The translations under genes were made by a program, and so were the position numbers. From an uncultured Actinomycetota bacterium (GTDB lineage Bacteria; Actinomycetota; Actinomycetes; JAFAQI01), in contig CAVYQE010000001.1 of the NCBI GenBank assembly GCA_963770565.1, positions 320,001 through 384,000 of the forward strand: a stretch of 64,000 nt of DNA, given 5' to 3'. Shown in pieces: positions 2,046-27,913 of this stretch (its first letter is position 1; each line of letters begins with the position of its first letter). Under the pieces are notes generated by a model. It was given only the letters and a program-made list of their open reading frames with translations. It was not told the origin of the DNA and ran no database searches.

Positions 2046-2075
2046 TTGAAATTGTGCCACCTCTTCCGATATAGT
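2046..2075 (+). promoter_or_regulatory. Sigma70-like promoter at the left end of the phage-like cluster
   Basis: TTGAAA (2046-2051), 18-bp spacer, TATAGT (2070-2075). Confidence 0.55.
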
Positions 2076-2088
2076 CGCGTGAGTTGAG

Positions 2089-2166
2089 CGGTATCAGCGG
2101 AGCCTGACAAGAACCAGGTATCTCAAGAGCCCGCCGTCGGACGTTTGTCCGGCGGCGGGCTTTTTT
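2089..2166 (+). ncRNA. Putative cis-regulatory leader RNA with intrinsic terminator (copy 1)
   Basis: CGGTATC..GAGCCTG-loop-CAGGTATCT..GAGCCCGCCG-hairpin-CGGCGGGC-TTTTTT; same architecture at 13788-13867. Confidence 0.65.
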
Positions 2167-2211
2167 CGTTGTTCCGCGTCCCCTCGCGTTCTCATTCCCT
2201 CGGAGGTTGCA

Positions 2212-2412
2212 ATGAAATTGTTTCAATGGTTGCTGGCCAACCAAGACGCGTTGTTGGCGATCGTCGCGGAGTTGGAGACGATCTTCGGCGGCTCGTCTCC
2301 TACGCCCGCGCCCCAGACGATCGATCTGAGCGGCATCCAAGCGTTCATCGCCGCGGTGGAAAAGTGGCTCCCCGTGATCGAAGCGATTGTCGCCCAGTTC
2401 GCGGCCAATTGA
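2212..2412 (+). CDS. Small amphipathic hypothetical protein (66 aa), first gene of the cluster
   Basis: ORF with GGAGG RBS upstream and host-like codon usage. Confidence 0.7.
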   Translation: MKLFQWLLANQDALLAIVAELETIFGGSSPTPAPQTIDLSGIQAFIAAVEKWLPVIEAIVAQFAAN

Positions 2413-2422
2413 TTGTTCCCGT

Positions 2423-2499
2423 TGGAGTTCACGCTTTGGCGTGCCGCGGAACGCACGAGTGTGATTTCGAACAAACGCACGCCGAAGCGTGAACTCCAA
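2423..2499. repeat. REP-like inverted doublet (GGAGTTCACGCTT..AAGCGTGAACTCC family)
   Basis: Inverted repeat; related copies at ~29559-29608 and ~55325-55465. Confidence 0.75.
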
Positions 2500-2554
2500 C
2501 GGCTGAATTCCAACTTTGTTTCCAATGCGATCTTCAACATGGGACTCTCGAACG

Positions 2555-3322
2555 ATGATTCTTCATGGAAAACTCGGCAAGCTGCCGGCTCGGCATGATG
2601 TGCGCACGCTCCGCTTCGCCCGCTACGACCGCGCCTTGCCCGCGCCGCCGGCCACTTGCGATTATTCGATCAAAGTGCCCTCCTGGCCGATGCTCGGCAA
2701 CGATCGCTATGGCGATTGCACGTTTGCCGGGGCGGCTCATCTCAGTCAATGCTGGGTGGACAACGCCGGCTCGACGCCGGGCGGATTCCTGCCCGACGAT
2801 CGGGCCGTCGTCGCCGAATACCTCGCCTTCACCGGTGGAGAAGACACGGGCTGCGTCGAGTTGGACGTGCTCAAGACTTGGCGGGCCGACGGGATCGTCG
2901 GGCACAAGATCGGCGCCTTTGCCGCGCTGCGGGCGGGCGATCACGACGAGGCGCACGACGCCGTGTTTCTGTTCGGCGGCGCCTATTTGGGAGTCGCCAT
3001 GCCGCTCTCGGCCCAGAAGCAGCAGGTGTGGGACGTGCCGCGGCGCGGGCCGATCGGCCGCGGCTCGCCCGGCTCGTGGGGCGGCCATTGCGTGGTCGTC
3101 GTGGCCTATGACGCGCGGGGGCCGATCGTCGTCACCTGGGGGCAGCTCCAGCCGATGACCTGGGCCTTTTACGACGCCTATGTCAACGAAGCGTATGCGA
3201 TTCTCGCAGCCGACTTTTTCAACGGCGCGAGCGTCGCACCCAACGGCTTCGATCTCGCTGCGCTCACGGCCGATCTGGCGCTGGTCGGCCGAATGGAATC
3301 CCCCTCGCGTGCCACGGTTTGA
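2555..3322 (+). CDS. Papain-like (C1-type) cysteine peptidase-like protein, phage-associated
   Basis: MLGNDRYGDCTFAG (catalytic Cys), GGHCVVVVAYD (His), VTWG. Confidence 0.65.
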   Translation: MILHGKLGKLPARHDVRTLRFARYDRALPAPPATCDYSIKVPSWPMLGNDRYGDCTFAGAAHLSQCWVDNAGSTPGGFLPDDRAVVAEYLAFTGGEDTGCVELDVLKTWRADGIVGHKIGAFAALRAGDHDEAHDAVFLFGGAYLGVAMPLSAQKQQVWDVPRRGPIGRGSPGSWGGHCVVVVAYDARGPIVVTWGQLQPMTWAFYDAYVNEAYAILAADFFNGASVAPNGFDLAALTADLALVGRMESPSRATV

Positions 3323-3516
3323 CGATCGCCGCGATCGACTTCGACCTTCGGAACAAACTCGACCGGCGTCCGTCAAGCCGTGCGACCCCGAGAGTTCGCC
3401 GCAGCCCGCACGGCTTGATCGGCGCCGGCAACGATCGTGCTCGACGCGGCGACCTGTTCGGCGTCGATCAAACAGTGGCACGAGCATCCCCCAACAAACA
3501 CACTTTATCTTCCTCC

Positions 3517-4996
3517 ATGCCGCGTCTTGCTCTACTTATCGCCGTCGTCCTGCCGCTGGGCGGTTCGCTTCGTGCGCAGTCGCCCACAAGCGAGTTGCGC
3601 GCCGCGGTGGCCGACATCGAGCGGCTGCCGGCGGAAGTGCGGCCGGGAGTGCGGTATCTATCGCTCTACGCGATTCCGGCCCGGCGCTGCGCGGAGACCG
3701 CGCGCGTCGTGAGCTACACGCTCAATGCCCTGAGCCGAACGCGGACGATCACGCCGCCGACCGCCGTATCGCCGACGCTGCTGCGGTTTTCGATCACCAA
3801 CTACATCGCCGACCGGGCGGAATTCGACGCCTGGGCGGCCGCCTGGGAACAGCTTGTCAAGGCCGATCCCTATTGGCATTTGCAGACGGAGATTCTCGCG
3901 GCGAGCGCCGCGAACCCCGCGTCGAAATCGGCTGCATTACACGCGACGCATCGCGCTCAAACGACCACCGTCACCGTCGATGGCGGCTGGCTCGATCTCG
4001 CCCTCGCCGCCAAGCTGTGCGCCGATTCCGGCAGTGCCGGAGCGCTGTTGCGGGCCGACGACTTCATCGCCCACGCCACGGCCGCGCCGCATTATTACGC
4101 GCTGGCCGGCATTCCGCCGACCGAGGCCGAGTTCGTCAAATCGCTGGGAGTCGATGCGGCGACGATCGAGCGGTTGCGAGCCGACGCCGGGGCGAATCTG
4201 CTGATTTCCGGAGTGACGCAAAAGCCGCGGCGAATCATCTGGTCGCAGGGGCCGCTCGGCGGCGTCTACGAAACGCTCGATGTCAAGCAAGTCGATGCCC
4301 GCCGCGATCCGATTCGCCGGCCGATCTCCGTCGGCAAGGTGAAACTGAAATACGACGCGGGGGAATGGTTTGCCGTCTGCGCCCAACGGTTTGTGGCGCG
4401 TCGCCCTGTACGATGCGGCCGGCAAGTTGCAACAGTCGGTCCCCGACAAAATCGCCAAAGACACCAGCGATCCCCGCGGCGACGGGATCGTCACGCCGCT
4501 GATCTCGTGCATCCGCTGCCACACCGAAAGCGGCTTGCGGCCGTTTCGCGACGATCAATCGCGATTGCTCGCCTCAGGCCGCGTCGATTTCGAAAGCGGC
4601 GATCCGGCGATCGTCCGCCGCGCGGCCGAATTCTATGACGAGCCCCGCTTGCAGCGGCAAATGGAGTTCGATCGCGAAACCTATGCCCAGGCCGTCGCGC
4701 GGGCGGCCGGCATGAAGCCCGAGGAATTGGCGGCCGCGTTGGCCCGCACGGTCCGCGAATTCGCCTATTTGCCTGTCACGCGCGCGCAGGCGGCCCGCGA
4801 ACTCGGCGTGCCGGAAGCGGAATTCGCCGCCGCGCTCCGTTCATCGCACGACCCGATCGTGCTGACGCTCATCGAAGGCCGCCCGGTGCTGCGCGGGCAA
4901 TGGGAGAGCAGCTTCGCCGAAGCGGCGGGGGGAGTCAGGGGTCGGGGGTCGGGGGTCGGGGGTCAGGGGTCGGGGGTCAGGGGTCGCGGGGAGTGA
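3517..4996 (+). CDS. Secreted hypothetical protein with a CxxCH heme-binding motif; frameshift near 4375
   Basis: Signal peptide MPRLALLIAVVLPLGG; SCIRCH at ~4505-4522; spans ORFs 3319..4638 and 4370..4996. Confidence 0.6.
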
Positions 4997-5099
4997 CGCG
5001 TGGCGCGTGTGGCACTGGCAAGCGCAGTCTGCCAGTGCCGTGTGGGTCGTGACGAGTGGCGAGTGGCGAGTCACAACAAACAACTGACAGAGGTTTTCC

Positions 5100-5674
5100 A
5101 TGAAAGTCGAACGCTTCACAATCTTTGCGCTCATGACGTTTGCCGCACTCTGGATGGTTGCCGGTTTTTGGGCTCCGAATGCGCTATCCGCCGCCTGCCG
5201 CGTGCAGACGGCGGTCGTGGCGGCCAATGTCGTGGCCGTGCCGGTCGCCCTGTCGATCGGAGTGCCGGTGGCCGACGCAGCGCCGTATCGATACAGCTAT
5301 CGAGCCTTCGCACCGCCGCCCCCCGAGCCGATCGGCGAAGCCGAGATCGAAGCGATTGCCGCGCGCGTGGCCGAGAAGCTACGGCCGGCGAACGGGAATT
5401 CATCGGCAAACGCAATTCCCGCTTCGCCACGACCGCCGCCAAGTCGGCCGCCGGCCGCCACGTCGCTCGTCGCGCAAAGTGTGCGCGATGTCACGGCGGA
5501 GCCGCGCCGAGAGCGAATCTCTCGTTCGAAAACCTCAACCGACTCGATTGCCGCACGCGCTTGGCGGCCGTTCGAGCCGTGCTCGACGAGTCGATGCCGA
5601 AAGACGGCCCGAGGCTCACCCCCGAAGAGGCCGGCCAAGTGCTCGAAGAATTGACGGATGAAAGGGGCAAGTGA
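5100..5674 (+). CDS. Secreted protein with C-terminal cytochrome c-like domain; frameshifted
   Basis: Signal peptide; KCARCHG at ~5477-5497 followed by 'ESMPKDGPRLT' (axial Met pattern) in the second frame. Confidence 0.55.
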
Positions 5675-6523: not shown

Positions 6524-7076
6524 TGAACATCCGCGATCGAATCAAGGAATTGCGGCGCGTGAGGGCGGCGAGCTGCGCCCCAATCCGCGCAACTGGCGCA
6601 CGCATTCCGCCGCCCAGCGCGACGCTCTGCAAGGCATCCTGGCCGAGGTCGGCTACGCCGGCGCGCTCTTGGCCCGCGAGTTGCCCGACGGCTCGCTCGA
6701 ATTGATCGACGGCCATTTGCGGGCCGAGACGACCCCCGAGATGTCTGTGCCCGTGCTGGTGCTCGACGTGAACGAAGCGGAGGCGAACAAAATTCTCGCC
6801 ACGCATGATCCGCTCGGCAATCTGGCGGGCTGCGACGCCGCGGCGCTCGAATCGCTCGTAGCCGACGTGCAGACCGACAACGCCGCGCTGCAAAAGCTAT
6901 TGGACGACATGCTGCAAACGCCGGCAGGTTCCGAGCCGGATGAATTCCCGCGGTCCGAAACGAGCATCCCGCATTTGTTCCAAATCGTCGTCGAATGCCG
7001 CGACGAGGCCGAGCAGCAGTCGGTGTACGAGCGGCTGATCGAAGACGGATTGAAATGCCGGTTGATGATGTTGTGA
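6523..7076 (+). CDS. ParB N-terminal (ParB/Srx) domain protein; frameshift near 6575
   Basis: PNPRNWRTH and LIDGHLR motifs across ORFs 6523..6705 and 6669..7076. Confidence 0.8.
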
Positions 7077-7079
7077 GCC

Positions 7080-7726
7080 TCGTTCCCAGGCTCTGCCTGG
7101 GAACGCCCTGCACTTGAGGCTCCGCCTCAACGTCAGCAGCGGATCGAGCCGACTTCGCCGACAAACGACGAGGCAGAGCCTCGCAGGCAGTGCGTTCCCA
7201 GGCTCTGCCTGGCAGCGCAGTTTGTGAGATGGAATCGTATCGACGTTTATGCTGTTTTTGTTCGGGGCTTTGGAAAGGACGGCAGGAGATCAAGGAACCC
7301 GGTAGGGTTCCCAGACATGAGCCGGTGGTTGACGCCGTCAGGCCGATACCACCGGTCGTGAAATCGAACAATCCCTTTTGCACCCCGATAGGGGTGCCAG
7401 CGCTCTGCGACCCCTACCGGGGTCGAAGAAAAGTTTTCGCGTTCCGATGCCGGCGGTGTCGGCCTGCGGCCTCAACCGCCGGCTAATGTCTGCCATCCCT
7501 ATCGGGATGAATTTCATGCCACCTCGGAGTCGGGAATTGTGCGAGTACGTGGGCGGAACAAAAACCGACCAAAACACGAACTCGAATTCCACTTCGAAAC
7601 TCCACAGATTGCACAGCCCAGGCTCCGCCTCGTCATCACGACCCGCCACCAATCGCCACGCAACGAGCCGTGCCGCGCGGCAGAGCCGTGCCCGCAGTGC
7701 GTTCCCAGGCAGAGCCTGGGAACGAG
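7080..7726. mobile_element. REP (CGTTCCCAGGCTCTGCCTGGGAACG) cluster with an embedded ~400-bp composite non-autonomous element
   Basis: 7215-7620 recurs inverted at ~34794-35120 and internally deleted at ~48276-48505; ends ...TTGCACAGCCC. Confidence 0.7.
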
Positions 7727-7769
7727 ATGCGAACAGCCGACAACCGACAACCGACCAAGGACCAATCCG

Positions 7770-8905
7770 ATGCTCGAAATCATCAACTCCTGTCCGCTGC
7801 ACGATTCGTTTCGCGTCCAACAGGTCGCCGGGATGTTCGATGTGCCGCTGGCCGAGAAGCTCAGCGAGCGTTTTACGGTCGAGATGCCGGCGCTCGACGG
7901 TGATTGGCGGATCGGGCTGATCGTCGGCCCGTCGGGCAGCGGCAAAACGACGCTCGCCCGGCGGCTCTTCGGCGATGCGCTGGTCGAGCGGACCGAGTGG
8001 CCGGCGAATCGGGCCGTCGTCGATTGTTTCGGCGACCTGCCGATCGGAGAAATCGTCGGGTTGCTCATCGCTGTCGGATTCAGCTCGCCCCCGTCGTGGA
8101 TCAAGCCCTACGCCGTGCTCAGCGGCGGCGAACGCTTCCGCTGCGATCTGGCGCGGGCGTTGAGCGGAGGGCAGAGAGCAAAGAGCGGAGCGCCGGACAC
8201 TTCTCCGCTCTCTGCTCCCTGCTCTTCGCTCGCACCGCTTGTGGCCTTCGACGAATTCACCAGCGTCGTCGATCGCACCGTGGCGAAGTTCGGCTCGGCG
8301 GCGGTGGCGAAGGGAATTCGCAACGGGCGAATCGACTGTCGATTCGTCGCGATGACTTGTCATTACGACGTGATCGAGTGGCTCGCGCCCGATTGGGTGC
8401 TCGATATGGCCAGCCGCGAATTCCAATGGAGGTCGCTTCGGCGACCGCCAATCGAGCTGGACATCTTTCGTTGCCGGAGTCGTGCATGGGCCTTGTTTGC
8501 GAAGCATCACTATTTGAACGGCCGCTTGAACCGCTCGGCCCGCTGCTTTATGGCATTGTGGGACGGGCGCCGGCGGCGTTTTGCGCGACGTTGCCGGTCA
8601 TCGGCCGCGCGCGGCGATGGCGGATCACGCGGCTGGTGACGCTCCCGGATTTTCAGGGCATCGGCATCGGCTTGCGCCTGGCGGAGGCGGTCGGCGATCG
8701 GCATCGTGCCCAGGGAGAACGCTATAGCATCACCGCCAGCCATCCGGCCGTGATCGGCCATTGCCGAAATTCGCCGCGCTGGCGGGCGACGCAAGTGATG
8801 AAGACCGGCTCGCGGCCTACTCTCGGGATTCCGAGCTATCGCGGCTCGTGCGGTCGCGCCGTCGTGTCGTTCGAATACGTTTCAGCTTCGGAACCTCGAC
8901 CGTGA
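7770..8905 (+). CDS. ABC-type ATPase fused to GNAT acetyltransferase (phage-associated); frameshift near 8570
   Basis: Walker [14 protein letters not shown] signature, Walker B VAFDEF, TCHYD; GNAT motif [14 protein letters not shown]. Confidence 0.8.
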
Positions 8906-9354: not shown

Positions 9355-9819
9355 GTGAAATCCAGCCGCTATAAACTCGACGAAACCAAGCAGCGCGAGA
9401 TCTGCGCGATTCTCGCCGTCGGCGGCACTCGGCTGATGGCCGCCGCGTATGTCGGCTGCTGTGTGGCGACGATCCGCCGCGCGGCGCTGCGCGAAGCGGC
9501 GTTCGCCGCGCAGCTTCGCAAAGCGGAGAGCAGCGCCGAGATCACGTTCCTCAAGAGCATCCACGCCGCCGCGAGCGACGTCAAGCAGTGGCGGGCCGCG
9601 GCCTGGGCCCTCGAGCGGCTGTTCCCCGAGCGCTACGCCCGCCGCCTGCCCGACTCGATCACCGTCGAGCAAATGACCGAAATCATCAAGGCCCTGGGAG
9701 CGATCATCGTCGGCGAAGTGCCGGTCAAGCGATATCGCCAGCGCGTGCTGGCTCGCTTGGCGGACTTGCTGGCGGAGCAGCCGCCGAACAAGAAGGTAAA
9801 GGCATCCCGTGGAAAGTAA
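9355..9819 (+). CDS. HTH protein, putative terminase small subunit
   Basis: N-terminal HTH; WRAAAWALERLFPERY motif; directly precedes and overlaps TerL. Confidence 0.6.
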   Translation: MKSSRYKLDETKQREICAILAVGGTRLMAAAYVGCCVATIRRAALREAAFAAQLRKAESSAEITFLKSIHAAASDVKQWRAAAWALERLFPERYARRLPDSITVEQMTEIIKALGAIIVGEVPVKRYRQRVLARLADLLAEQPPNKKVKASRGK

Positions 9820-11426
9820 TCTGATCTTCGGCTGGCGCGGGCTCGACGCGGCGAACCGTTCGCTCCGCATCCTGCACGAGTCGATCGAGAATGAGGGGAA
9901 CGTCGATCGCCGCCCGGCCGCAATCGCCCGGCAATGGAGCTTGCTCGATTGGGGCCGCGCTTATTTGCCCGATCATTTCCGCGTCGCCCCGTCGCGGATG
10001 CACGTCTGGCTGGCCGAACAGTTCGACGAAATGAAAAACCATCGCGGCCGAAAGCTCAATGTGCTCGGCCCGCGCGGCGGGGCAAAGTCGACGATCGCTA
10101 CGCTGGCGTTCGTGCTCCGCTCGGCCCTCGAAGGCCGCGAGCCGTATATCTGGATCATCTCCGACACCAAGCATCAGGCCATCGCGCATCTGGAAAACGT
10201 CAAGGCCGAGTTGCGCGACAATCCGCTGATCGCCGCCGATTATCCCGAGGCGGCCGCGGCGGGGCGACGCTGGCGCGAGAATCTCATCGGGCTGGCGAAT
10301 GGCGTCACGATCGAAGCCTTCGGCACGGGGCAGCGGATCCGCGGCCGCCGCAGCCGCGAGCATCGGCCGACGCTCATCGTGTGCGACGATTTGCAGGACG
10401 ATCGGCATATCGAATCGCGCCTGGCCGCGCGAACATTCGGCCCGTTGGTTTCACGGAAAGTTGCTGAAGGCGGGAACGAAGCGAACGAACGTGGTGAATC
10501 TGGCCACCGCCCTGCATCGCGAGGCGCTGGCCCTGGTTCTCGACGAGACGCCCGGCTGGATTTCGCGGCGGTTCGCGGCCATCGAGCGCTGGCCCGACAA
10601 TATGCCGCTGTGGGCCGAGTGGGAGCAGATCTATGCCGACGTTGAACGACCGGATAGCCGCGAAGCCGCGCGGGCGTTCTTCGAAGCGCATCGCGCGGCG
10701 ATGGAGGCCGGCGCCGAGTTGCTCTGGCCCGAGGAAGAGGACTTGTACACGCTGATGGCGATGCGCGTCGAGGAGGGGCGGACGGCGTTCGAGCGCGAGA
10801 AGCAGAATGTGCCGATCAATCCGGAAGCGTGCGAATGGCCCGAGGAGTATTTCGGCGATGGGCTGTGGTTCGACGATTGGCCGGCCGACGTGCAGGTGAA
10901 AACGCTGGCCCTCGATCCGAGCAAGGGGCACGACGCCGGCCGCGGCGACTATTCGGCCTTCGTCATGCTGGCCGTGGATCGCCGCGGGCTGCTCTATCTC
11001 GAAGCCGATCTGGCCCGACGGCCGACGCCGCAGATCGTCAGCGACGGGGTGGAACTCTGCCGGCGATTCAAGCCCGACGTGTTCGGAATCGAGGCGAATC
11101 AGTTCCAGGAATTGCTCGCCGGCGAGTTTGCCGCGGAACTCGCGCGGCAGCGCGTCTACAACGTCGCCCCGTGGGGAATCGAAAACCGGATGAATAAGCA
11201 GACGCGAATCCGCCGCCTCGGGCCGTTCTTGTCGTGCAAGCGGTTGAAGTTCAAGTCCCACTCGCCCGCCACGCGATTATTAGTGGAGCAGTTGAAAGAA
11301 TTCCCCGTCGCCGATCACGACGATGGCCCGGACGCCGCGGAGATGGCGATTCGCCTGGCGGCCGAATGGCTGGAAGGCCGGAAACCCTCGGATGGCTTGG
11401 GAGATCGATTTCGCTTGAGCGTCTAA
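9809..11426 (+). CDS. Phage terminase large subunit; frameshift near 10430
   Basis: PRGGAKST Walker A, RPTLIVCDDLQ Walker B, nuclease motifs LALDPS, GDYSA, HDDGPDA. Confidence 0.9.
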
Positions 11427-11730
11427 TGTCGCCTTTCGCTCCGCGAAAGAGCGTTTTCCCGCCGAGTTGTGGTCCGGTCTCGCGCGAGTTGTGGTCCGGT
11501 CTCCCGACCGGACCACTGTTGCCGACCGAAGGTCTCCGGCGCTTGGGAGACCTTCGGTCGGCTTGCGTGGCATGGTCGGGAGACCATGCCACAACCTGGA
11601 AACGATGTCGGCACTAACGCGGTCTGGCACCCCTATCGGGGTGCAAGGAGTTTTCTCGTTATCGAACCGGTGGTATCGGCCTTCGGCCTCAACCACCGGC
11701 TACCGTCTGCGAACCCTGCCGGGTTCGACT
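11426..11730. repeat. Cluster of REP-like elements between terminase and portal
   Basis: TGTCGCCTTTCGCTCCGCGAAAG, GTGG..GGTCTCCCGACC/GGTCGGGAGACC..CCAC and partial copy of the 7330-7500 element. Confidence 0.75.
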
Positions 11731-11772
11731 CGGAGTGTGTCTGCTACATTACCTTAACCCCGAGTTCAAAAT

Positions 11773-13149: not shown

Positions 13150-13150
13150 A

Positions 13151-13589: not shown

Positions 13590-13595
13590 ACACCC

Positions 13596-17581: not shown

Positions 17582-17930
17582 CACTCATCATGCTCCGCCC
17601 TGTACTCATCACGCTCCGCGTGATGACACGTTCGCCGTGATGACCGTTCTGAATACTCATCACGACGGAGCGTGACGACGACGGTTCATCACGACGGAGC
17701 GTGATGACCACAATTGTACTCATCACGCTCCGCGTGATGATCGCTCCGCCGTGATGACCACGTCGTCATGCTCACGGCTCAGCCCGATTCGCACGCCAAG
17801 CTTCGTCACGACGGAGCGTGATGACGACGGTTCATCACGACGGAGCGTGATGAGTACATTAAATATTCATCACGACGGAGCGTGATGAGTACATTTGTAC
17901 TCATCACGCTCCGCGTGATGATCACGCTTA
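17582..17930. repeat. REP cluster (CATCACGCTCCGCGTGATG / CATCACGACGGAGCGTGATG)
   Basis: About 10 palindromic copies; same family at 28105-28290. Confidence 0.8.
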
Positions 17931-17978
17931 CCGCTGCCCTCACAAATCTCCCGGAAAACCCAGAAACGCGGCTCAGCC

Positions 17979-18194
17979 ATGTTGACCGACTGCCAAACGA
18001 TTGCGGCCATCCGCAGCCAAGCCCTCGCGCAATTGCTCGATCTGCGGGCGAATCCCAAGCCGACTTACACGATCGACGGGCAAAGCGTCTCGTGGGAGAG
18101 CTACGCCCGGTCGCTGCAAGAAACGATCGATTGGTGCGACTTGAAGTCGATCGGATTGGCGCCGTTCGAAATCCGCTCGCGAGGAGTCACCTGA
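17979..18194 (+). CDS. Head completion (gpW-like) protein
   Basis: 71 aa; PTYTIDGQSVSW hairpin motif; follows capsid. Confidence 0.6.
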   Translation: MLTDCQTIAAIRSQALAQLLDLRANPKPTYTIDGQSVSWESYARSLQETIDWCDLKSIGLAPFEIRSRGVT

Positions 18195-18838
18195 TGGCCG
18201 CGGCATTCGACGTGCAAGCCGATTTCGCGCAAGTGGCCGACCAGCTCGAGGCGGTGACGCTCGAGCGGGCCGACGGCGCCGAGTCATCGCCGCTCGCCGG
18301 CGCGCTGCGGCGTGCGATCGGCACGCGCGAAGCGGCCGCGAGCGGCGGCAAGTACACGGCCGCGGATGTCCGCTGGCATCTCGCGGCCGCCGTGTTGGCC
18401 GCGGCGCCGCGGCTCGGCGATCGGATCATCGACGCCGCGGGTGAGGCTTGGACGATTTTGGAAACGCGGCTGGCCACTTGCGGTTCGCGCTACGAATGCG
18501 CGAGCCGCAATCTGGCGATCGCCGCCGGGCTCGACACTTCGATCACGATCCGCCGCGAGCAGATCGCGAAGAGCGCCAGCGGGGCCGTCGAACGCTGCTG
18601 GACGGATTATCGCATCAATGTCCGGGCGCGGATTCAAGAGCAATCGGCCCGCCGCGGCGAGCAGCACGGCCGCCAATCGGGAATCGTGACGGCCAAGATT
18701 TATTTGGCTGAGCAGATCGCGATCGACAACGGTTTTCGAATCGTAGCCGCCGACGGCACGCTCTATGAAGTGATCGGCTGCGCCAACCCCGACTCGATTA
18801 CCGGCCTATTCACAATCACCGCCGAACGTAGGTTGTAA
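18194..18838 (+). CDS. Head-tail adaptor/closure protein
   Basis: Translationally coupled (TGATG); two beta-barrel-like repeats (PRLGDRIID..WTI; GFRIVAADGTLYEV). Confidence 0.55.
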   Translation: MAAAFDVQADFAQVADQLEAVTLERADGAESSPLAGALRRAIGTREAAASGGKYTAADVRWHLAAAVLAAAPRLGDRIIDAAGEAWTILETRLATCGSRYECASRNLAIAAGLDTSITIRREQIAKSASGAVERCWTDYRINVRARIQEQSARRGEQHGRQSGIVTAKIYLAEQIAIDNGFRIVAADGTLYEVIGCANPDSITGLFTITAERRL

Positions 18839-18982: not shown

Positions 18983-19414
18983 GTGACCATCGAACGCGCA
19001 ATCCACGAGCATTGGAGCGGCTGGCGCCCGCTGACGGCGCTGGTGCCGCCCGAGCGGATATACACCGGCTTGCCGCCGATCTGCGACGCCGCGGGAGAAA
19101 CGCTGACGTTTCCCTACGTGTCGATCGCCGCCGAGCAACAGGACCGGCAGACGCGCACCTCGAGCGGCACAACATTGGCCGTCGAGCGGATCCGCTTTTC
19201 GATTTACGGCCAAAGTTACGACGCGGCGCGGCGGATCGACCGCGCGATTTGCGAGTATTTCGACCGCCGCGATTTCGCCTGGTCGGAGGGCCGAGTGCTC
19301 GACATGCAGCCCGCCGGCCGCACCGAGAGCGAAAGCCCCGACGACGGCGTGTGGCTCGTCGCCCGCGATTTTCTCGTTCGCTTTTCCGACACGTTTGGGA
19401 GCCAACTTCGATGA
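18983..19414 (+). CDS. Tail terminator/completion-like protein
   Basis: 143 aa; LVPPERIY..FPYV..IRFSIY pattern; synteny. Confidence 0.55.
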   Translation: MTIERAIHEHWSGWRPLTALVPPERIYTGLPPICDAAGETLTFPYVSIAAEQQDRQTRTSSGTTLAVERIRFSIYGQSYDAARRIDRAICEYFDRRDFAWSEGRVLDMQPAGRTESESPDDGVWLVARDFLVRFSDTFGSQLR

Positions 19415-19923
19415 CCACGCTTGCCAGTGAAATCCGCGTTTCGATGCAGTGGCTATTCCAGGAGCCGCTGGCCTTGACCACGGTCGGCGACGCTTCGCAA
19501 CTCGCTTACGACGAAACGCTCGCCAGCGGCACAGCGGCCGACCAGGCCGACCGCATCTGGTCGGACCAACGCACGCTGGCGGCCGGGGCGGATGACGACC
19601 TCGATCTGACGGCGCTTACGCAATCGCTGTTCGGCTCGACGGTGACGATCGACTTCGCCCGCGTGAAGGCGATCTTGATCGTTCACACCTCGACCACGGC
19701 CGGGGAAAAGCTGTCGCTCGACTCCTCGGTGACCAACGGTTTCACCGGCCCGTTCGCCGGCTCCGCCACGAGCAAGCTGGAGATCGGCGCCGATAGCGCC
19801 GCCCTGTTGGCCAGCAAGAAAGACGGCTGGGCCACGGCCTCGGGCAATAAAGTGCTGCGAATCCACAACGGCGGCTCGGCCACGGCGATTTACAACGTCG
19901 TCGTGCTCGGGACGAGCGCGTGA
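19411..19923 (+). CDS. Hypothetical virion protein
   Basis: ATGA overlap with the upstream gene; beta-rich 170 aa. Confidence 0.65.
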   Translation: MTTLASEIRVSMQWLFQEPLALTTVGDASQLAYDETLASGTAADQADRIWSDQRTLAAGADDDLDLTALTQSLFGSTVTIDFARVKAILIVHTSTTAGEKLSLDSSVTNGFTGPFAGSATSKLEIGADSAALLASKKDGWATASGNKVLRIHNGGSATAIYNVVVLGTSA

Positions 19924-20076: not shown

Positions 20077-20460
20077 ATGTCCCAACCTATCTCCGGCAAA
20101 AGTGGCTTCGTCAAGATCGGCGACGATGCGGTCGCCGAAGTGACGCGCTGGTCGTTCGCCAAACAGGCCCACTCGAGCCGGTATGCTTCGAGCAGTACGG
20201 GCGGATTTACGCGGAGCATTCCGGGAGTGAAATCGGGCAGCGGCGAAATCGAATTCGCGTTCGACATCGCCGCCGCCGGCCCGCTGGTCGAAGGCGCCGC
20301 CGTGACGCTCCAGCTCTACCTCGACGCGACCCACTTTTACTCCGTTCCCGCGATCGTCACCGGATTGGAAGTCGAAGTCGATATCGACAGCGGCGCGGTG
20401 ATCGCGGGCACAGCCCGCTTCGACACCGACGGCGCCTGGACGGAGCCGGACTTGGGATAG
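20077..20460 (+). CDS. Tail tube protein-like
   Basis: 127 aa; ISGKSGFV..VAEVTRWSF..SIPGVKSGSGEIEF pattern. Confidence 0.6.
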   Translation: MSQPISGKSGFVKIGDDAVAEVTRWSFAKQAHSSRYASSSTGGFTRSIPGVKSGSGEIEFAFDIAAAGPLVEGAAVTLQLYLDATHFYSVPAIVTGLEVEVDIDSGAVIAGTARFDTDGAWTEPDLG

Positions 20461-20555
20461 GAGCAGGGAGCGGGTAGCAGGGAGTAGGGAGTAGGGGGGG
20501 AGCAGGGAGCGGGGAGCGAAGGGTCGGGAGCAACTTTTTCCGCAAGGCGATTTTC

Positions 20556-21269
20556 ATGGATAAGCATCATGCCATGGCCGGCGTCGGGGGGACGATCCGC
20601 ATCGGCGCGATCGACTTTCGCCTCCGGCCGCTGACGCTCGGTGATCTGGCCGAACTCAAGGCCCACGTCGTCGCCCGGCGCGAGCCCGCTCGAAACGCTC
20701 GCCCGCGATCTCGAGCGCATCGATCCGCGGCAACATGCCGAGCGGATTCGCGATGCTTGGGCGCTGCGCGGATCGGGCGCGGCGCGACGGCCGAAGAAAT
20801 CGACGATTATCTGCAATCGTTTCGCGGCACGGCGCATTTGTTCTGGCTCATGGCCCGCGAGGATTGCCCCGCGCTCGATTCGTTGGCGGCGGCCCGCTCG
20901 TGCCTGGCGGAATATGCCGAGGGCCGGCTGCTGGAACTTCACGGCCGTCTCGATCAAGCGACCGGTTTTCTTTCGGACACGGCCAATTTGGCCAACGCGC
21001 CGAGCGCCGGGACCGCCGGTTTTCATTGGGCGCGGCTCTATCGTCATTTGAGCCTGACCTATGGTTGGACCCCGGCCGAGATCAACCGCCTGACTCCGTT
21101 TCAAGCGACGATGTACGCGAATCCGCAACTCTCGGAAAACGGCACGATCCGCATGAAACTCAGCGATGCAGTCGGGGCCGGAGCGCGCCGTGCGCCGCGG
21201 CGGCCACGCGGCGAACCTTCCGACGCCGGCAATATCGGCCGCGGCAGCACCGGTGCGCGATTCAGATAG
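20556..21269 (+). CDS. Tail assembly chaperone-like protein (G/GT-type), frameshifted
   Basis: LRPLTLGD N-terminus; YGWTPAEINRLTPFQ C-terminal motif. Confidence 0.5.
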   Translation: MDKHHAMAGVGGTIRIGAIDFRLRPLTLGDLAELKAHVVARREPARNARPRSRAHRSAATCRADSRCLGAARIGRGATAEEIDDYLQSFRGTAHLFWLMAREDCPALDSLAAARSCLAEYAEGRLLELHGRLDQATGFLSDTANLANAPSAGTAGFHWARLYRHLSLTYGWTPAEINRLTPFQATMYANPQLSENGTIRMKLSDAVGAGARRAPRRPRGEPSDAGNIGRGSTGARFR

Positions 21270-21564: not shown

Positions 21565-22431
21565 ATGTCCATCGCCTTTCAAGAACTCGCCGGCTCGCCG
21601 CGATTGCGGATTCTCGAATCGGGGCTGATCGTCGGCGAGCGCGATTTTCAAGTCGCCTGGGACGATTGGGTTCCGCTCGTCAACGCGCTGCGAGGGCTTT
21701 ATTTCTCGGCCGGCTCGCAGGGGGCGGCGCTGATCAGCCCCGCTTATTTTCCCGGCAATCCGGCGCTGCGCGTCGTCGCGATCGCGATGACGCCATTCGA
21801 CGAGCAATCGCCCGACGGCGACGCGGCGCTGGCCGATCTCTCGACGGGGCTGAACAGCTATGCAGGGGGCGCGCGGCTGCATGTGGAATATGGCCTGGTC
21901 GAGGCGGCGGCCGACAAGCGCAAGCCGCCGCATCCGGCCGGCACGTTTCTGCGTTGGGAGCGCGACGTGGGGGTCGATATGCTCTCGATCCCCGCCCGCT
22001 ATTGGAAATGGTCCGGCGGCCCGAACACGATTCTCGAAGACGACTTGCCGATCGGAGTTCGGGTGCCGACGGCGACGCACACGCTCATTTGGAGCAACGT
22101 CGCCCGGCCCCCTTACGACACGATCCAAGCCACGCGCGGCACGGTCAATTCCTCTGCGATTCTCGGCGCGCCTGCCGGCTGCCTGCTGTTCGTCGGGGCG
22201 AAGATCACCGAGATCTATCAGCTCGACGGCACGCTTCGTTATACCTTGCGGTACATTTTCGCCGAGAAGACCGTCCCCTTGATCGCGGATCCCGACACCG
22301 TGGTCGGCCACAACTACTTTTATTACGGCCCCGGCTCGAGCGGCGAGAATTGGTTCGAGGTCGTCTCGGTCGCCGGCGGGCACGCGGTCTACCCGGCGAC
22401 CGAGTTCGGGCCGTTGTTTCAATACGAGTAA
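21565..22431 (+). CDS. Hypothetical tail-region protein (288 aa)
   Basis: Clean ORF; RGTVNS..LGAPAGCLLF motif; lies in the tail module. Confidence 0.65.
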   Translation: MSIAFQELAGSPRLRILESGLIVGERDFQVAWDDWVPLVNALRGLYFSAGSQGAALISPAYFPGNPALRVVAIAMTPFDEQSPDGDAALADLSTGLNSYAGGARLHVEYGLVEAAADKRKPPHPAGTFLRWERDVGVDMLSIPARYWKWSGGPNTILEDDLPIGVRVPTATHTLIWSNVARPPYDTIQATRGTVNSSAILGAPAGCLLFVGAKITEIYQLDGTLRYTLRYIFAEKTVPLIADPDTVVGHNYFYYGPGSSGENWFEVVSVAGGHAVYPATEFGPLFQYE

Positions 22432-22452: not shown

Positions 22453-25396
22453 GAACCGCCAAGGACGCCAAGGACGCCAAGAAGCTATTCGATAATCTCA
22501 TTTCAAGTCTTGGCGTCCTTGGCGTCTTGGCGGTTCAATGCGACAATCCGCATGACACAGACGCAGAAACGTGTTTTTCGACAACTCCTTCGGACCTCAG
22601 GGAATGGAGTCGACTGAAATCGACCAAAGCTGGTTTTAGGAACACTAATCGGCGCTAATTAGCGCTAATCAGCGATGATTAGTTTTCCCAATCTGTCATG
22701 CCGCCGTTCTTTCTCGCTCTCGGTTTTTCCGTGACCTCGTGTAAAAACTTGGTTGCGGCGTGACGCCCGCGCTATGCAATCTGTGGATAAAAATATCTCT
22801 GATTTCTTGGCGTCCTTGGCGTCTTGGCGGTTCAATGCGACAATCCGCATGACACAGACGCAGAAACGTGTTTTTCGACAACTCCTTCGGACCTCAGGGA
22901 ATGGAGTCGACTGAAATCGACCAAAGCTGGTTTTAGGAACACTAATCGGCGCTAATCAGCGCTAATCAGCGATGATTAGTTTTCCCAATCTGTCATGCCG
23001 CCGTTCTTTCTCGCTCTCGGTTTTTCCGTGACCTCGTGTAAAAACTTGGTTGCGGCGTGACGCCCGCGCTATGCAATCTGTGGATAAAAATATCTCTGAT
23101 TTCTTGGCGTCCTTGGCGTCTTGGCGGTTCAATGCGACAATCCGCATGACACAGACGCAGAAACGTGTTTTTCGACAACTCCTTCGGACCTCAGGGAATG
23201 GAGTCAACTGAAATCGACCAAAGCTGGTTTTAGGAACACTAATCGGCGCTAATCCGCGCTAATCAGCGATGATTAGTTTTCCCGATCTGTCATGCCGCCG
23301 TTCTTTCTCGCTCTCGGTTTTTCCGTGACCTCGTGTAAAAACTTGGTAGCGGCGTGACGGCCGCGCTATGCAATCCGTGGATAAAAATATCTCTGATTTC
23401 TTGGCGTCCTTGGCGTCTTGGCGGTTCAATGCGACAATCCGCATGACACAGACGCAGAAACGTGTGTCTCGACAACTCCTTCGGACCTCAGGGACTGGAG
23501 TCGACTGAAATCGACCAAAGCTGGTTTTAGGAACACTAATCGGCGCTAATCAGCGCTAATCAGCGAAGATTAGTGTTCCCGATCTGTCATGCCGCCGTGC
23601 TTTCTCGCTCTCGGTGTTTCCCTGACTCGTGTAAAAACTTGGTAGCGGCGTGACGGCCGCGCTATGCAATCCGTGGATAAAAAGATCTCTGATTTCTTGG
23701 CGTCCTTGGCGTCTTGGCGGTTCAATGCGACAGTCTGCATGACACAGACGCAGAAACGTGTTTTTCGACAACTCCTTCGAATCTCAGAGAAATGGAGTCG
23801 ACCGAAATCGACCAAAGCTGGTTTTAGGAACACTAATCGGCGCGTAATCAGCGCTAATCAGCGATGATTAGTGTTCCTGATCTGTCATGCCACCGTGCTT
23901 TTTCGCTCTCGGTTGTTCCGTGACCTCGTGTAAACACTTGGTTGCGGCGTGACGGCCGCGTTATGCAATCTGTGGATGAAAACATTTCTGCCCTCTCGGC
24001 GTCCTTGGCGTCTTGGCGGTTCAATGCAGGGCGATTGCATCATGTTGCATACGATGTGGAAGTTTGCGGTATCGCCGACACGGCCCAGTTCATCTTGACG
24101 TAACCGACCAATTATGCCGCGGAGGCTGAAGCTGCTGCTCGCATACTCGATCTCGCCATTTCGAATCAATACCGAATGTTGGTTGCCCAATCCCCGCCAT
24201 CATTGCCAGTGTGGTGCAATCGCCCTGCGGTTCAATGCGACAGTCTGCATGACAAAGACGCAGAAACGTGATTTTCGACAACTCCTTCGGACCTCAGGGA
24301 ATGGAGTTAACTGAAATCGACCAAAGCTGGTTTTAGGAACACTAATCGGCGCTAATTAGCGCTAATCAGCGATGATTAGTTTTCCCAATCTGTCATGCCG
24401 CCGTTCTTTCTCGCTCTCGGTTTTTCCGTGACCTCGTGTAAAAACTTGGTTGCGGCGTGACGCCCGCGCTATGCAATCTGTGGATAAAAATATCTCTGAT
24501 TTCTTGGCGTCCTTGGCGTCTTGGCGGTTCAATGCGACAATCCGCATGACACAGACGCAGAAACGTGTTTTTCGACAACTCCTTCGGACCTCAGGGAATG
24601 GAGTCAACTGAAATCGACCAAAGCTGGTTTTAGGAACACTAATCGGCGCTAATTCGCGCTAATCAGCGATGATTAGTTTTCCCAATCTGTCATGCCGCCG
24701 TTCTTTCTCGCTCTCGGTTTTTCCGTGACCTCGTGTAAAAACTTGGTTGCGGCGTGACGCCCGCGCTATGCAATCTGTGGATAAAAATATCTCTGATTTC
24801 TTGGCGTCCTTGGCGTCTTGGCGGTTCAATGCGACAATCCGCATGACACAGACGCAGAAACGTGTGTCTCGACAACTCCTTCGGACCTCAGGGACTGGAG
24901 TCAACTGAAATCGACCAAAGCTGGTTTTAGGAACACTAATCGGCGCTAATCAGCGCTAATCAGCGAAGATTAGTGTTCCCGATCTGTCATGCCGCCGTGC
25001 TTTCTCGCTCTCGGTGTTTCCCTGACTCGTGTAAAAACGTGGTAGCGGCGTGACGGCCGCGCTATGCAATCCGTGGATAAAAAGATCTCTGATTTCTTGG
25101 CGTCCTTGGCGTCTTGGCGGTTCAATGCGACAATCCGCATGACACAGATGCAGAAACGTGATTTTCGACAACTCCTTCGAACCTCAGAGAAATGGAGTCG
25201 ACTGAAATCGACCAGAGCTGGTTTTAGGAACACTAATCGGCGCTAATCAGCGCTAATCAGCGATGATTAGTGTTCCCGATCTGTCATGCCGCCGTGCTTT
25301 TTCGCTCTCGATTGTTCCGTGACTCGTGTAAACACTTGGTTGCGGCCTGACGGCTTTCTGCTTTCTTGGCGTCCTTGGCGCCTTGGCGGTTCAATC
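22453..25396. repeat. Tandem array of nine ~297-bp non-coding units (5+4) starting from a REP doublet
   Basis: Anchor CTTGGCGTCCTTGGCG at 22509, 22806, 23103, 23400, 23696, 23995, 24503, 24800, 25096, 25365. Confidence 0.95.
24027..24227. mobile_element. 201-bp MITE with 13-bp TIRs and 10-bp TSD
   Basis: CAGGGCGATTGCA..TGCAATCGCCCTG flanked by CGGTTCAATG at 24017-24026 and 24228-24237. Confidence 0.8.
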
Positions 25397-25408
25397 GGAG
25401 ACTGACCG

Positions 25409-26218
25409 ATGAGCAATCTTGGAAAGGTCGCCCCCGGCGAGCCGATCACGGCCGAGTGGGCCAATGCGCTGGTCGAGGCCGTGGTCTCGCTGGGGCGGAT
25501 CGTCGGCGTCGCGCCGGTGCTAGTCCAATATAGCGACGTCGGAATTCAGATCAGCCTGCCCACGCTGCCGCGGTTCGATCTCGTCGAACTCAAAGACACG
25601 ATCGAGGCCCGCGACACCGACAAGCAAGCCGCGCGATTCTCCTTCGATCCCGCCGCCACCGACAAATGGATCGACGCCGCTCAAACGCTCGACCACACGG
25701 CCGACGCCCAGCAGGGACTCGCTCTCGCCGGCGAACGGCATCTGACGTTCTTTCATCCGGCGGCCGGCCAACGGATTCCGTTGCCGGGCGTGCAATACCA
25801 TTTCGGCAAGTTGAGCGCGGCGCTCGCGGCCGGCGGCTCGGCGGCCTGCGCGGTTTGGAAAGTCGCCGGCGGCAGCCCGGCCGATTCGACCTATAGTGTG
25901 ACCGTCTACGACTGGCTCTTGCCGCCCGGCGGGCAACTCGCGTCCGGAACGCCCGTCATGCTGCTCTTTCACTTGCAGTCGAAACGATTCTATGTCGCCG
26001 CTTCGAATTCCATCGGCCTGGTGATCGGAAAATCGTCCGGCCCGATCGACAAAGGGGCCAGCGGCACGGTCGCTGTTTATAACGGCGCGGCCGGCAGCGA
26101 AACGGACTCGGGAAGCACGATCGCAGCCTACAACCCCTTCGCCGACGTGGCCGACGGCAAGTGGGTCGCGGCCGGAGAGATCAACGGGCAATGGTATCTG
26201 CTGGCCGCAGAGTGTTAA
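25409..26218 (+). CDS. Hypothetical tail/fiber-associated protein (269 aa)
   Basis: KVAPGEPITAEWANALVEAV start; two internal repeats (GKL..AL.AGGS / GKS.GPI.KGAS); ends WYLLAAEC. Confidence 0.65.
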   Translation: MSNLGKVAPGEPITAEWANALVEAVVSLGRIVGVAPVLVQYSDVGIQISLPTLPRFDLVELKDTIEARDTDKQAARFSFDPAATDKWIDAAQTLDHTADAQQGLALAGERHLTFFHPAAGQRIPLPGVQYHFGKLSAALAAGGSAACAVWKVAGGSPADSTYSVTVYDWLLPPGGQLASGTPVMLLFHLQSKRFYVAASNSIGLVIGKSSGPIDKGASGTVAVYNGAAGSETDSGSTIAAYNPFADVADGKWVAAGEINGQWYLLAAEC

Positions 26219-26369
26219 GCGGCGGGAAGAAGAAAACGCGACAGAGTATGAGGATGACGATCTCGCGATCCTAATCCTTCTCGTACTCCTGCTCGCAGTC
26301 CAATTCCCAATCTTAATCCTTATCCTACTCCTGCTCCGCTCCCCGTTCACCCTTCAGCCTTTCCCAACC

Positions 26370-27007
26370 ATGGGCTTTAAACTCTTCGGCTGCGGATGCT
26401 GCGGCGGCCGGGATTGCTCCCCCTGTTGCTCGGCGAGCCCGGCGACGGCGACGATCGATTGGCCCGGCGGTTTGACCGCCTTGGCCGATTGCGACGGCTG
26501 CGACAAGATTCCCGTCGGCGATTATGTCGTCGCGGCCGAGACCGATTACGCGCCGTTCGGCGAAGCCTGTTATTGGATCATCGAGCTGGGCGCGGCGACG
26601 TTTATCCCGATTGCGACGCGGGGTTGATCTTCGGGACCGATCCCGCCGCGCCGGGCCCGGAGGCGACCTTTCTGGCCGCTCTGGTGTACGATCTCGTCAG
26701 CGGCCAGTGCTATCTGGCCGTGACCGTGTCGGTCGCGATCACGAGCGCCGCGAGTGGAGGCGGAAACACGGTCAACTTCCTGGCCGGAGCGCTGTATGTG
26801 AGCGAGCCATCCGACGAGGCCGATCGTTTTTGCAGCGGTACGTTCACATTGAACCTCGTCTCAGCCGATCCGGGCTACCACGATGCGGCGGGCAATTTGC
26901 TCTGGACCGAGCCGAATTTCGGCGACCCATTCACGACGACCGATTTCACGCCGTACAGCGGCGGCTGCGCCGGCTCGCTGCCGAGTTCGTTGACCGTGAC
27001 ATTTTGA
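26370..27007 (+). CDS. Cys-rich N-terminal hypothetical virion-associated protein; frameshift near 26605
   Basis: MGFKLFGCGCCGG..CSPCC; spans ORFs 26370..26627 and 26396..27007. Confidence 0.55.
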
Positions 27008-27080
27008 GGTTTAAGGCCGCGGACCGCGCGGATTGAAGAAGAGAATCCACGAGAATCCGCGAATATCCGCGGCAAAAACA

Positions 27081-27498
27081 ATGCCCGAATGCGTTTTCGA
27101 ATTGATCGGCGAGCAAGGCGCGGCGTTCCTGCATCGCTGCCGCCATTGCGGCCGGCCACACACGTCGCGGCGTCGCCGATCCGAGCGCGATCCATCGCGC
27201 GTGCCGCGTCTCTTCGCCCTCCGCTCTTCGCTCTTTGCTCCTCCCTTCGCTTGCCCGCCGCGCCCTGAATTTCGCCCGCAGCTTGCCGCCGCATCTCTTG
27301 GCCGGGGCGCCGCTGGCAACTCAAGAGCAAATCGACGCTCGGCTGGCGATCTGTCGAAGCTGCCCGCACTTCACCGGCACGCGTTGCGGGCACTGCGGCT
27401 GCCAATGCCACGGCCGCCGCGTGTTTCTCAATGCCCTGGCCTGGGCCGACAAGGCTTGCCCGATCGGACGCTGGGGGCGGCTCGATCGGCCCGGTTGA
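27081..27498 (+). CDS. Cys-rich protein (DUF6171-like C-terminus), frameshifted
   Basis: RLAICRSCPHF..RCGHCGC..LAWADKACPIGRW. Confidence 0.6.
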
Positions 27499-27524
27499 CA
27501 AGGACATAAACGTATGTATACTAT
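27495..27524 (+). promoter_or_regulatory. Sigma70-like promoter with palindromic operator
   Basis: TTGACA 27495-27500, TATACT 27517-27522; TAAAC-GTAT-GTATA 27507-27520. Confidence 0.6.
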
Positions 27525-27580
27525 TCGGCGGCAGGAAAAACTGTCGAATTCGCGAATTGGCCGAATCGGGAGCGACCACC

Positions 27581-27913
27581 ATGACAACCGCGCGGGCGAA
27601 GACCTGGCCTCTGTTTCGCGTTTGGATCACGCGGTTCGAGCGTTGGCAGCCGCGGGCGTGGGACGAACTCCCGCCGCGGGCGACCGCCGTCGAGCCGGCG
27701 GAGCCGATGGCCCTGTCGGCCCGCGAGGCGATCCGCTTTCTCGAAGGCTTCAACCGCACGATGCTCGCCCGGCTGCTGCCGATCTGGGCCGTGGCCGTGC
27801 CCGTGACGATTCATTATGAAGGCGATTTGCGGGAGGGCGCGATCATCACGCGGCGGGTGAAATTGCTCGATTGCCGGCGGCCGGTGGCCGAGGAGCCGGC
27901 GGCGGTCGGTTAG
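27581..27913 (+). CDS. Hypothetical protein (110 aa) at the right end of the cluster
   Basis: GGGAG RBS, own promoter, globular-looking sequence. Confidence 0.65.
   Translation: MTTARAKTWPLFRVWITRFERWQPRAWDELPPRATAVEPAEPMALSAREAIRFLEGFNRTMLARLLPIWAVAVPVTIHYEGDLREGAIITRRVKLLDCRRPVAEEPAAVG

Follow-up and report, generated by a model that had tools for sequence, protein, structure and literature searches.

A phage-derived head-tail gene cluster resident in the Pirellulales, a candidate gene transfer agent of independent origin

This work examines a phage-like gene cluster on a stretch of 64,000 nucleotides (positions 320,001 to 384,000 of contig C1 in assembly GCA_963770565.1; this whole stretch is referred to here as the window, and positions without a prefix are window positions). 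Family scans of the plus-strand open reading frames (ORFs) and comparison with relatives place the cluster at 427 to 27913, as a run of plus-strand genes in head-then-tail order: terminase small subunit (TerS), terminase large subunit (TerL), portal, protease, a protein in the decoration slot, capsid, connectors, and tail. A preliminary description, made from the sequence alone, had recognized this morphogenesis run, and family matches for the ParB-like protein, TerS, TerL, portal, and capsid bear it out. Its start at 2046 had to be revised, as a conserved DNase I-family gene puts the left end at ~427, ~1.6 kb further left. The host-like composition that it had noted is confirmed by a GC content at third codon positions of 0.79 in element genes versus 0.80 in neighboring host genes. 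The window holds one copy of an ancient, ~23- to 28-kb phage-derived cluster that belongs to the chromosomes of a single planctomycete order, where it has been kept open under purifying selection as strong as that on a housekeeping gene. This inheritance across the order makes it a strong candidate gene-transfer particle, one that would be new and have evolved independently. For comparison among carriers, 28 to 61 kb around the portal was mapped in 16 genomes (designated G, the genome of the window being G000; individual loci are designated L) and the ORFs were clustered into families (OG).

Packaging is represented by TerS (9355 to 9819; phrog_4102, E value of 6.9e-13) and TerL (9809 to 11426; phrog_38), the latter with its ATPase part at 9809 to 10645 and its nuclease part at 10299 to 11426. 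The portal (11773 to 13149) is of the lambda family (PF05136, 4.2e-17; phrog_21, 1.7e-35) and scores 62.8 bits against a PF05136 gathering cutoff of 32.9. On its 3′ side lies a small protein conserved in relatives (OG13; 13482 to 13778), followed by a gene at 13824 to 15156, interrupted in the window copy, that at first gave only an unnamed PHROG match and no match when its profile was compared with PDB sequences. An AlphaFold model of a close homolog of this protein (pLDDT of 78.6) matched T4 gp21 (PDB entry 5jbl) in Foldseek with an E value of 1.9e-6, a probability of 1.00, and a TM score of 0.58 to 0.63 on the target. Residues H62 and S121, whose spacing suggests that they are the catalytic pair, are invariant in 9 protease sequences and kept in the window copy, and a helical, scaffold-like C-terminal part follows the protease domain. 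Because the fold match, the invariant His and Ser, and the helical part agree, the protease/scaffold identity given in the preliminary description holds, and the product is predicted to be a prohead serine protease of the T4 gp21, HK97, and herpesvirus assemblin fold.

The remaining head genes begin with OG30 (15263 to 15951, in two frames), whose slot holds a Phage_cement_2 decoration protein in other lineages. The major capsid protein (16420 to 17580, in an ORF open from 16267; PF25209, 5.6e-14) is 92% identical to its counterpart in G123. A head-tail connector region (17882 to 18838) combines the small OG29 (17979 to 18191, in another frame) with the head-completion family OG9, which matches PF05521 at 2.1e-4 in the window and at 1.8e-5 in L077, the locus of G051.

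In the window, matches to head-completion, tail-completion, and tube families are weak. The gp17-like tail-completion gene (18983 to 19414) matches PF11367 at 6.9e-4, its homolog in G082 at 2.7e-10. OG11 (19012 to 19923; phrog_22694, 2.8e-27) is conserved in its C-terminal ~170 amino acids (aa), and OG23 (20077 to 20460) is a possible tail tube with a weak match to phrog_1407 (4.1e-4). A protein at 20556 to 21269 is assigned to the chaperone/tape-measure slot by position only; in G175 this slot holds a 578-aa TMP_2 protein (7.9e-11). The slot reads as one frame at 20478 to 21266 and as two overlapping frames at L077:17936-18630, a difference that could stem from a programmed tail-chaperone frameshift or from an assembly artifact in the window. 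OG10 (21565 to 22431) is a tail-end protein conserved in relatives to which no fold was assigned: its profile found no match among PDB sequences, its model had a mean pLDDT of 54.5, and Foldseek against the PDB gave nothing below an E value of 0.2, with scattered baseplate and Dit names that were not used. OG42 (25409 to 26218) is a relative of the N-terminal portion of OG39, a tail protein of 913 aa in G082. An ORF at 26396 to 27007 had no match in the family scans, and OG14 (27431 to 27913), the last conserved gene, adjoins a divergent Cro/C1-type helix-turn-helix (HTH) gene in other lineages. Relatives additionally encode a Phage_tube_2 protein (2.7e-26 in G053), a cement-type decoration protein, and lectin and CBM domains among their internal ORFs. 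Pfam gave no family match for 25 ORFs comprising the window ends and small genes.

The left arm of the element starts with a 511-aa protein (427 to 1962) that carries an N-terminal hydrophobic stretch, taken as an anchor, and an SDHxP motif. As a single sequence it gave a Pfam match of just 0.015; a profile of 9 homologs matched DNase gamma (PDB entry 7kiu) at 6e-41 and DNase I at ~1e-37 over the whole catalytic domain, which places the predicted product in the DNase I/EEP nuclease family. The gene recurs 4 to 5 kb left of the ParB-like gene in 12 genome loci and 2 viral loci, occupies the same position in 11 of the 16 mapped genomes, and is the leftmost gene shared across differing host contexts. 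Next come a phrog_19005 protein of unassigned function (2516 to 3322; 4.8e-27), whose slot holds a subtilase or trypsin-like protease in relatives, and OG7 (3319 to 4996), a conserved protein of ~460 to 600 aa in relatives that is split here into two frames (3319 to 4638 and 4370 to 4996) and is one frame in L077. An Atlas look-up of OG7 returned "hypothetical" clusters only, mainly viral. OG22 (5000 to 5674, in two frames) is a small protein with a planctomycete cytochrome-c-like domain (weak PF13442; PSCyt1 in relatives, where this domain is likewise found in the left arm). A ParB-like nuclease-domain protein (6669 to 7076; phrog_620, 3.9e-4, with an L077 homolog at 4.9e-10) and a P-loop ATPase (7539 to 8639; phrog_11143, 6.7e-71), which in L077 carries a fused GNAT acetyltransferase domain, complete the arm.

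Integrase, att repeats, and replication genes, which like a repressor had not been seen in the preliminary description, were not found in scans of the contig, the borders, and relatives. No tyrosine or serine recombinase match occurs in C1:300-384 kb, ARAGORN found no tRNA, and the two border zones of the element share no direct repeat of ≥13 bp. Integrase, replication, and lysis families were all absent from Pfam scans of 23 ORFs of G051 and of 118 internal ORFs in 14 relatives, a result to be read with the fact that several conserved element proteins have no known function. A Cro/C1-type HTH gene stands at the right end of the element in 6 of the 16 mapped genomes. An intact temperate prophage, with its integrase, att sites, repressor/replication genes, and lysis modules, is thus not what lies here. 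In G055, recombinases are found ~18 kb outside the element. On one IMG/VR contig (G041; L069, 8 to 15 kb), a serine recombinase and two tyrosine recombinases sit between TerL and portal; this sole exception is an obvious secondary insertion and looks like a different mobile element. The conserved left-arm proteins without known function leave room for another explanation, namely a temperate phage or satellite family that co-speciates with its hosts at one preferred site by means of an unrecognized recombinase, the window copy being in decay. Against that explanation stands the lack of any integrase, excisionase, replication, or lysis family in the copies examined and of any att repeat at the borders of the window copy; the evidence on distribution and locus given below bears on it further.

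The organism to which the window belongs is not the one named by its assembly. The GC content of C1 is 0.61 to 0.65 up to ~400 kb and 0.68 to 0.71 beyond, and its tetranucleotide signature switches at ~395 to 400 kb, 11 to 16 kb beyond the window end, with all ten other contigs carrying the second signature. DUF1559, a hallmark of planctomycetes, is confined to two sites, C1:39.6 kb and C1:367.7 kb, and the repeats found in the gaps of the element give hundreds of matches in the low-GC part and one in the rest of the genome. The contig is therefore chimeric: the window lies within a planctomycete-like segment of ~400 kb, and the rest of the metagenome-assembled genome (MAG) is actinobacterial. 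The planctomycete host proposed in the preliminary description is right for this segment but not for the MAG that contains it, and analysis of "relatives" of the window through MAG taxonomy is misleading. A count of 0/40 for portal and capsid among such relatives, first read as patchiness, is void, since those genomes are related to the actinobacterial part that makes up most of the MAG and not to the planctomycete segment.

Distribution was assessed in an order sample, an even draw of 201 genomes from the order to which carrier G052 belongs, which are mostly labeled Pirellulales. A portal match was found in 136 and a capsid match (E ≤ 1e-40) in 131, mostly one match of each per genome. Nearly all of the full-length matches listed have no internal stop, the exceptions being one portal (G137, one TGA) and one capsid (G117, one TAA); extra matches are mainly pieces of one gene or portals of unrelated prophages at 31 to 37% identity. 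A class-wide sample gave 23 matches in 201 genomes (E ≤ 1e-60); all 23 were already in the order sample, so that no genome outside it appears among the class-wide matches listed. Among species-representative genomes, the portal has 228 relatives, of which 80 were kept; 79 of these are labeled Planctomycetota (39 Pirellulales, 22 loosely Planctomycetales, and the rest without an order). A tblastn search of 50,697 phage records with the portal returned no match, which speaks against a mobile phage family, as does the presence of mostly single copies in about two-thirds of the order. On the other side, IMG/VR holds 65 related portal loci, and of 10 records opened, 7 are classed as provirus, with CheckV completeness of 36 to 66% at 18 to 34 kb. 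As a separate observation, the portal of L081 (G235, contig C1, ~6.19 to 6.21 Mb) occurs once in full and twice as a partial copy, and ankyrin- and LRR-repeat genes lie in between.

The history of the cluster was compared with that of a host marker, a 586-aa piece of Mfd that adjoins the element and is present in 197 of the 201 order genomes. The closest genomes rank alike for portal and Mfd (88% and 87% identity for G123, 77% and 83% for G051, and 76% and 80% for G084). Protein distances of the two are correlated (Mantel r = 0.87, p = 1e-4; Spearman 0.77; slope of 1.10 and intercept of 0.06) in a test of G000 and 20 carriers (210 pairs, 9999 permutations), the carriers having been chosen to span the range among those with coordinates for both genes and, as kin, not being independent. 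Maximum-likelihood trees of portal and Mfd have 10 of 18 splits in common, including all strongly supported clades, compared with a mean of 0.3 and a maximum of 4 common splits in 2000 label shuffles. Between G000 and G123, Nei-Gojobori dN/dS in element genes rises from 0.08 (capsid) and 0.10 (portal) through 0.16 (both OG10 and OG42) to 0.18 (TerS), versus 0.09 for Mfd; dS is 0.60 to 0.83 for element genes and 0.88 for Mfd. Element and Mfd are thus of the same order of age and under the same strength of constraint, and the sequence comparisons show the cluster to be inherited vertically with its host over a large clade. Portal divergence in proportion to Mfd, at similar dS, is hard to reconcile with a mobile family.

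Within the 16 mapped genomes, the portal was found in 15 (in the 16th by other searches), TerL in 14, the ATPase in 13, protease and capsid in 12 each, the DNase and ParB-like genes in 11 each, OG7 and TerS in 9 each, and head completion and OG10 in 8 each. Distant members also share the same host flanks and thus the chromosomal locus. On the left, HEAT-repeat and MoCF-type genes abut the DNase gene in G052, G053, G054, G055, G088, and G175; on the right, OG14, a PolB-exonuclease-like gene, an M20 peptidase, and other genes are common to G052, G053, G082, and G084 and partly to G127. The genomes with these common flanks span most of the portal/Mfd tree. The context differs in G000, with Mfd on the left and MacB on the right, and in G051, where an S41 peptidase and LeuA abut the two ends of a ~23-kb element; both would fit a family that can move.

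The cluster can be split into two distant loci with neither half decaying. In 71 genomes for which the listed coordinates put portal and capsid on one contig, the two are separated by ≤5.5 kb in 57, by 7 to 15 kb in 5, and by 22 to 864 kb in 9. Three of the genomes mapped in detail (G088, G167, and G104) have no capsid module after the portal, and each has an intact capsid gene elsewhere. The whole head-tail module of G104, together with an HTH gene and OG14, stands on another contig, and in G088 protease, capsid, and OG29, followed by an HTH gene, lie 31 kb upstream. Since a self-packaging phage could not survive such splits, they argue for a system run by the host. With both halves intact in these genomes, and with the other evidence named above, a co-speciating temperate phage or satellite family appears very improbable, even when second copies in some genomes and mosaic tail modules are counted in its favor.

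We read the cluster as a domesticated, phage-derived particle system of the gene transfer agent (GTA) type, which would have arisen in or before the ancestor of the order and independently of RcGTA, the agent of Rhodobacter capsulatus. We give this reading, which draws on gene content and sequence comparison, a probability of about 0.6. An independent origin is suggested by differences in the types of portal, protease, and terminase and by the lack of any match to a GTA-named family among 29 proteins compared with NCBIfam. The preliminary description had likewise favored a long-resident, GTA-like system, and that view gains support here: patchy distribution with a phage-like phylogeny, neutral decay, and integrase or replication genes linked to the cluster in relatives (from the ORFs of 15, the G041 insertion apart) were each looked for, and none was found. 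In the working that we propose, the host would trigger expression of the cluster, TerS and TerL would fill small capsids with DNA through the portal, and the gp21-like protease would mature the capsids. Connectors and a short siphovirus-type tail would then be added and tailed particles released. The particles would serve the host, because the cluster cannot propagate itself, either by gene exchange or by a PBSX-like effect on neighbors. The exported DNase I-type nuclease, the serine protease, and the ParB-like/ATPase pair may be accessory, for example in DNA processing or release, which is a guess. A fuller version of this account, somewhat short of even odds in our estimate, would have a Pirellulales GTA derive from a lambda-like siphovirus in the ancestor of the order, with an exported DNase I-type nuclease and a serine protease recruited to it, and would make it a main route of gene exchange in the phylum. 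Its packaging and head-tail modules would act in trans, as they are hundreds of kilobases apart in some genomes.

Several observations weigh against the GTA-type reading, beginning with those from the order at large. A portal match is lacking in 65 of the 201 order genomes, which may reflect loss or incomplete MAGs, and the carriers compared with Mfd are, as stated, related to one another. A few genomes hold second copies (G059 on its contigs C130 and C10, each with portal and capsid; and one MAG with L086 and L094 on one contig), which may have come about by duplication or by rare horizontal gain. No lysis gene was recognized, and in the window no HTH regulator was found. The tail end is also variable. 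Two variants of the tail module have no detectable similarity to each other, and the clade of G000, G051, and G123 has no long tape measure and a truncated OG39 homolog. In G051, OG10 (L077:19081-19944) has an in-frame stop at an invariant Trp in what is a short-read MAG; the lineage may truly have lost the function of this tail gene. G088 has no tail genes in the stretch examined, and G167 has a partial set 39 kb away in which the tail genes are themselves partial.

Because the tail end varies or is lost, selection is clearest on the packaging-head half of the cluster. This fits a prophage that was grounded long ago and of which the capsid and packaging genes were kept for another function (a PBSX-like killer or defective particle, release of biofilm DNA, or defense), the tail being dispensable. 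In several lineages, TerL, portal, protease, and capsid persist while tail genes have disappeared, been shortened, or been exchanged for others; the cluster is associated with secreted-type proteases and with a conserved DNase I-type nuclease that is exported; and vertical inheritance under purifying selection would be expected equally of such an element. Many lineages nevertheless retain the whole tail, including genes for tail completion, tube, the 578-aa tape measure, and the 913-aa distal protein, and the dN/dS values of the tail-end OG10 and OG42 between G000 and G123 point to constraint on the tail as well. The evidence gathered would suit transfer and other uses of the particles alike; we regard this explanation as unlikely, if still a serious one.

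The other points against a maintained, GTA-type system come from the window copy itself. TerL, which is one frame in the relatives checked, has an uncompensated +1 base near 10427, and comparison with relatives shows broken frames in at least three other genes (OG7, OG22 with its cytochrome-c-like domain, and OG30). Nucleotide alignment is too noisy at such divergence, and only the TerL and OG30 breaks were placed. An insertion of ~349 nucleotides of 24-bp tandem repeats separates the two conserved parts of the protease gene, which runs as protease domain (13824 to 14397), repeats (14398 to 14672), and C-terminal part in another frame (14878 to 15156). A 2.85-kb array stands between two tail genes, and host repeats have invaded the copy on a large scale: of the 18 gaps between genes of the element, 11 hold repeats that recur elsewhere in the DNA of the same organism; the preliminary description had placed such repeats in most gaps, and rightly so. 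These features, together with the missing HTH regulator, raise a separate question, whether the window copy is a dead remnant in its own lineage, whatever the family is.

Housekeeping genes of the same segment are broken as often. Mfd is in three pieces (L003:16144-19365), Hsp70 in two (L003:7499-8862), a transketolase-family gene in three (C1:176301-177313), and a paralog of IMPDH in the window in three. Within the window, housekeeping genes split by frameshifts lie at 44709 to 46102 and at 58.8 to 63.2 kb; the actinobacterial part has intact copies, such as IMPDH at C1:732 kb. This suggests that the planctomycete segment is a low-coverage, error-prone assembly of a minor organism, in which case most breaks in the window copy may be assembly errors. 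The state of its frames, open or broken, is for the same reason uninformative on decay or maintenance. A search for sequencing runs covering 9355 to 17580 listed none. The preliminary description had counted intact portal and capsid ORFs in favor of maintenance; both are indeed open, but intactness cannot be read from this assembly. One frame break lies within a G run, the His and Ser of the protease are intact, most repeat insertions are intergenic, and dN/dS against G123 is 0.08 to 0.18. On balance, a dead window copy is plausible but doubtful.

The repeats have features of their own. Tandem Repeats Finder (TRF) places a tandem host repeat of ~19 to 24 bp at 14398 to 14672 and 15967 to 16297, inside or beside coding sequence, and the 24-bp period of the array in the protease gene keeps the reading frame. 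The larger array (22508 to 25352) consists of ~9 copies of a 297-bp unit with a GC content of 0.53 to 0.55, inserted between genes that are directly adjacent in L008, L025, L077, and G123. That it might be a decayed tape-measure gene was considered and rejected: every unit contains stops, the GC content is 0.53, the core also occurs scattered at other places, and relatives have nothing that corresponds to it. The ~175-bp core, with an internal palindrome, is dispersed through the planctomycete segment, for example at C1:1056-4005, C1:185582-186360, and C1:196824-198857 and as single copies such as that at 58089 to 58162; it forms tandem arrays of differing period (297, ~395, ~305, and ~620 bp).

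RcGTA and its relatives in the Alphaproteobacteria are the nearest comparison. Like the present cluster, RcGTA is reportedly a set of phage structural and packaging genes, arranged head to tail on the chromosome, that lacks any recognized gene for integration or replication; it is also said to be inherited vertically over a large clade under purifying selection, with parts that may be at separate loci and with some incomplete versions. Beyond general phage folds, there is no sign of homology between the two. The planctomycete cluster has a lambda-family portal, a T4 gp21-like protease, and a psiM2/T7-like TerL, belongs to another phylum, has an extra left arm (DNase I-type nuclease, serine protease, ParB-like protein, and ATPase-GNAT), and is so far only predicted to make particles and to package host DNA. 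When 29 proteins were compared with NCBIfam, which reportedly includes RcGTA-specific models, only general terminase and portal models were matched and none named for a GTA.

PBSX of Bacillus is likewise said to be a conserved, nonpropagating, phage-derived element kept by its host, and a Cro/C1-type HTH gene, a putative regulator, is present in many copies of the planctomycete cluster. PBSX, with its contractile tail, reportedly does not extend beyond a species group and its close relatives, whereas the planctomycete cluster is found throughout an order and its tail genes are of the siphovirus type. The head module of lambda-like siphoviruses (PF05136 portal, protease, decoration protein, and HK97-fold capsid) resembles it in gene order and family matches. 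Those phages differ from it in that no lysogeny, replication, or lysis module was found here, no relative occurs in the 50,697 phage records, and the cluster behaves as a host locus. Capsid-forming phage-inducible chromosomal islands (cf-PICI) are small elements that are said to encode their own capsid, portal, and terminase, as this cluster does; unlike it, they are reportedly mobile satellites of patchy distribution with integrase and replication genes, none of which was found here.

To our knowledge, GTAs stem from a few independent origins (in Rhodobacterales/Alphaproteobacteria, Bartonella, Brachyspira, Desulfovibrio, and Methanococcus), and we know of no natural transfer system in Planctomycetota. 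No published description of such an element was found in the openly available main texts of the literature on planctomycete GTAs and Pirellulales prophages. An order-wide, vertically inherited candidate would thus represent a new GTA origin, and the phylum is one whose cell biology is unusual and for which genetic tools are scarce. The split clusters with tail loss offer a natural experiment on which parts are kept by selection. At least 65 IMG/VR entries appear to be the host locus of this cluster, so planctomycete virus catalogs and host-virus links may be inflated. If the fuller version of the account is true, the cluster would be a main route of gene exchange in the phylum and, at the same time, a ready-made genetic tool.

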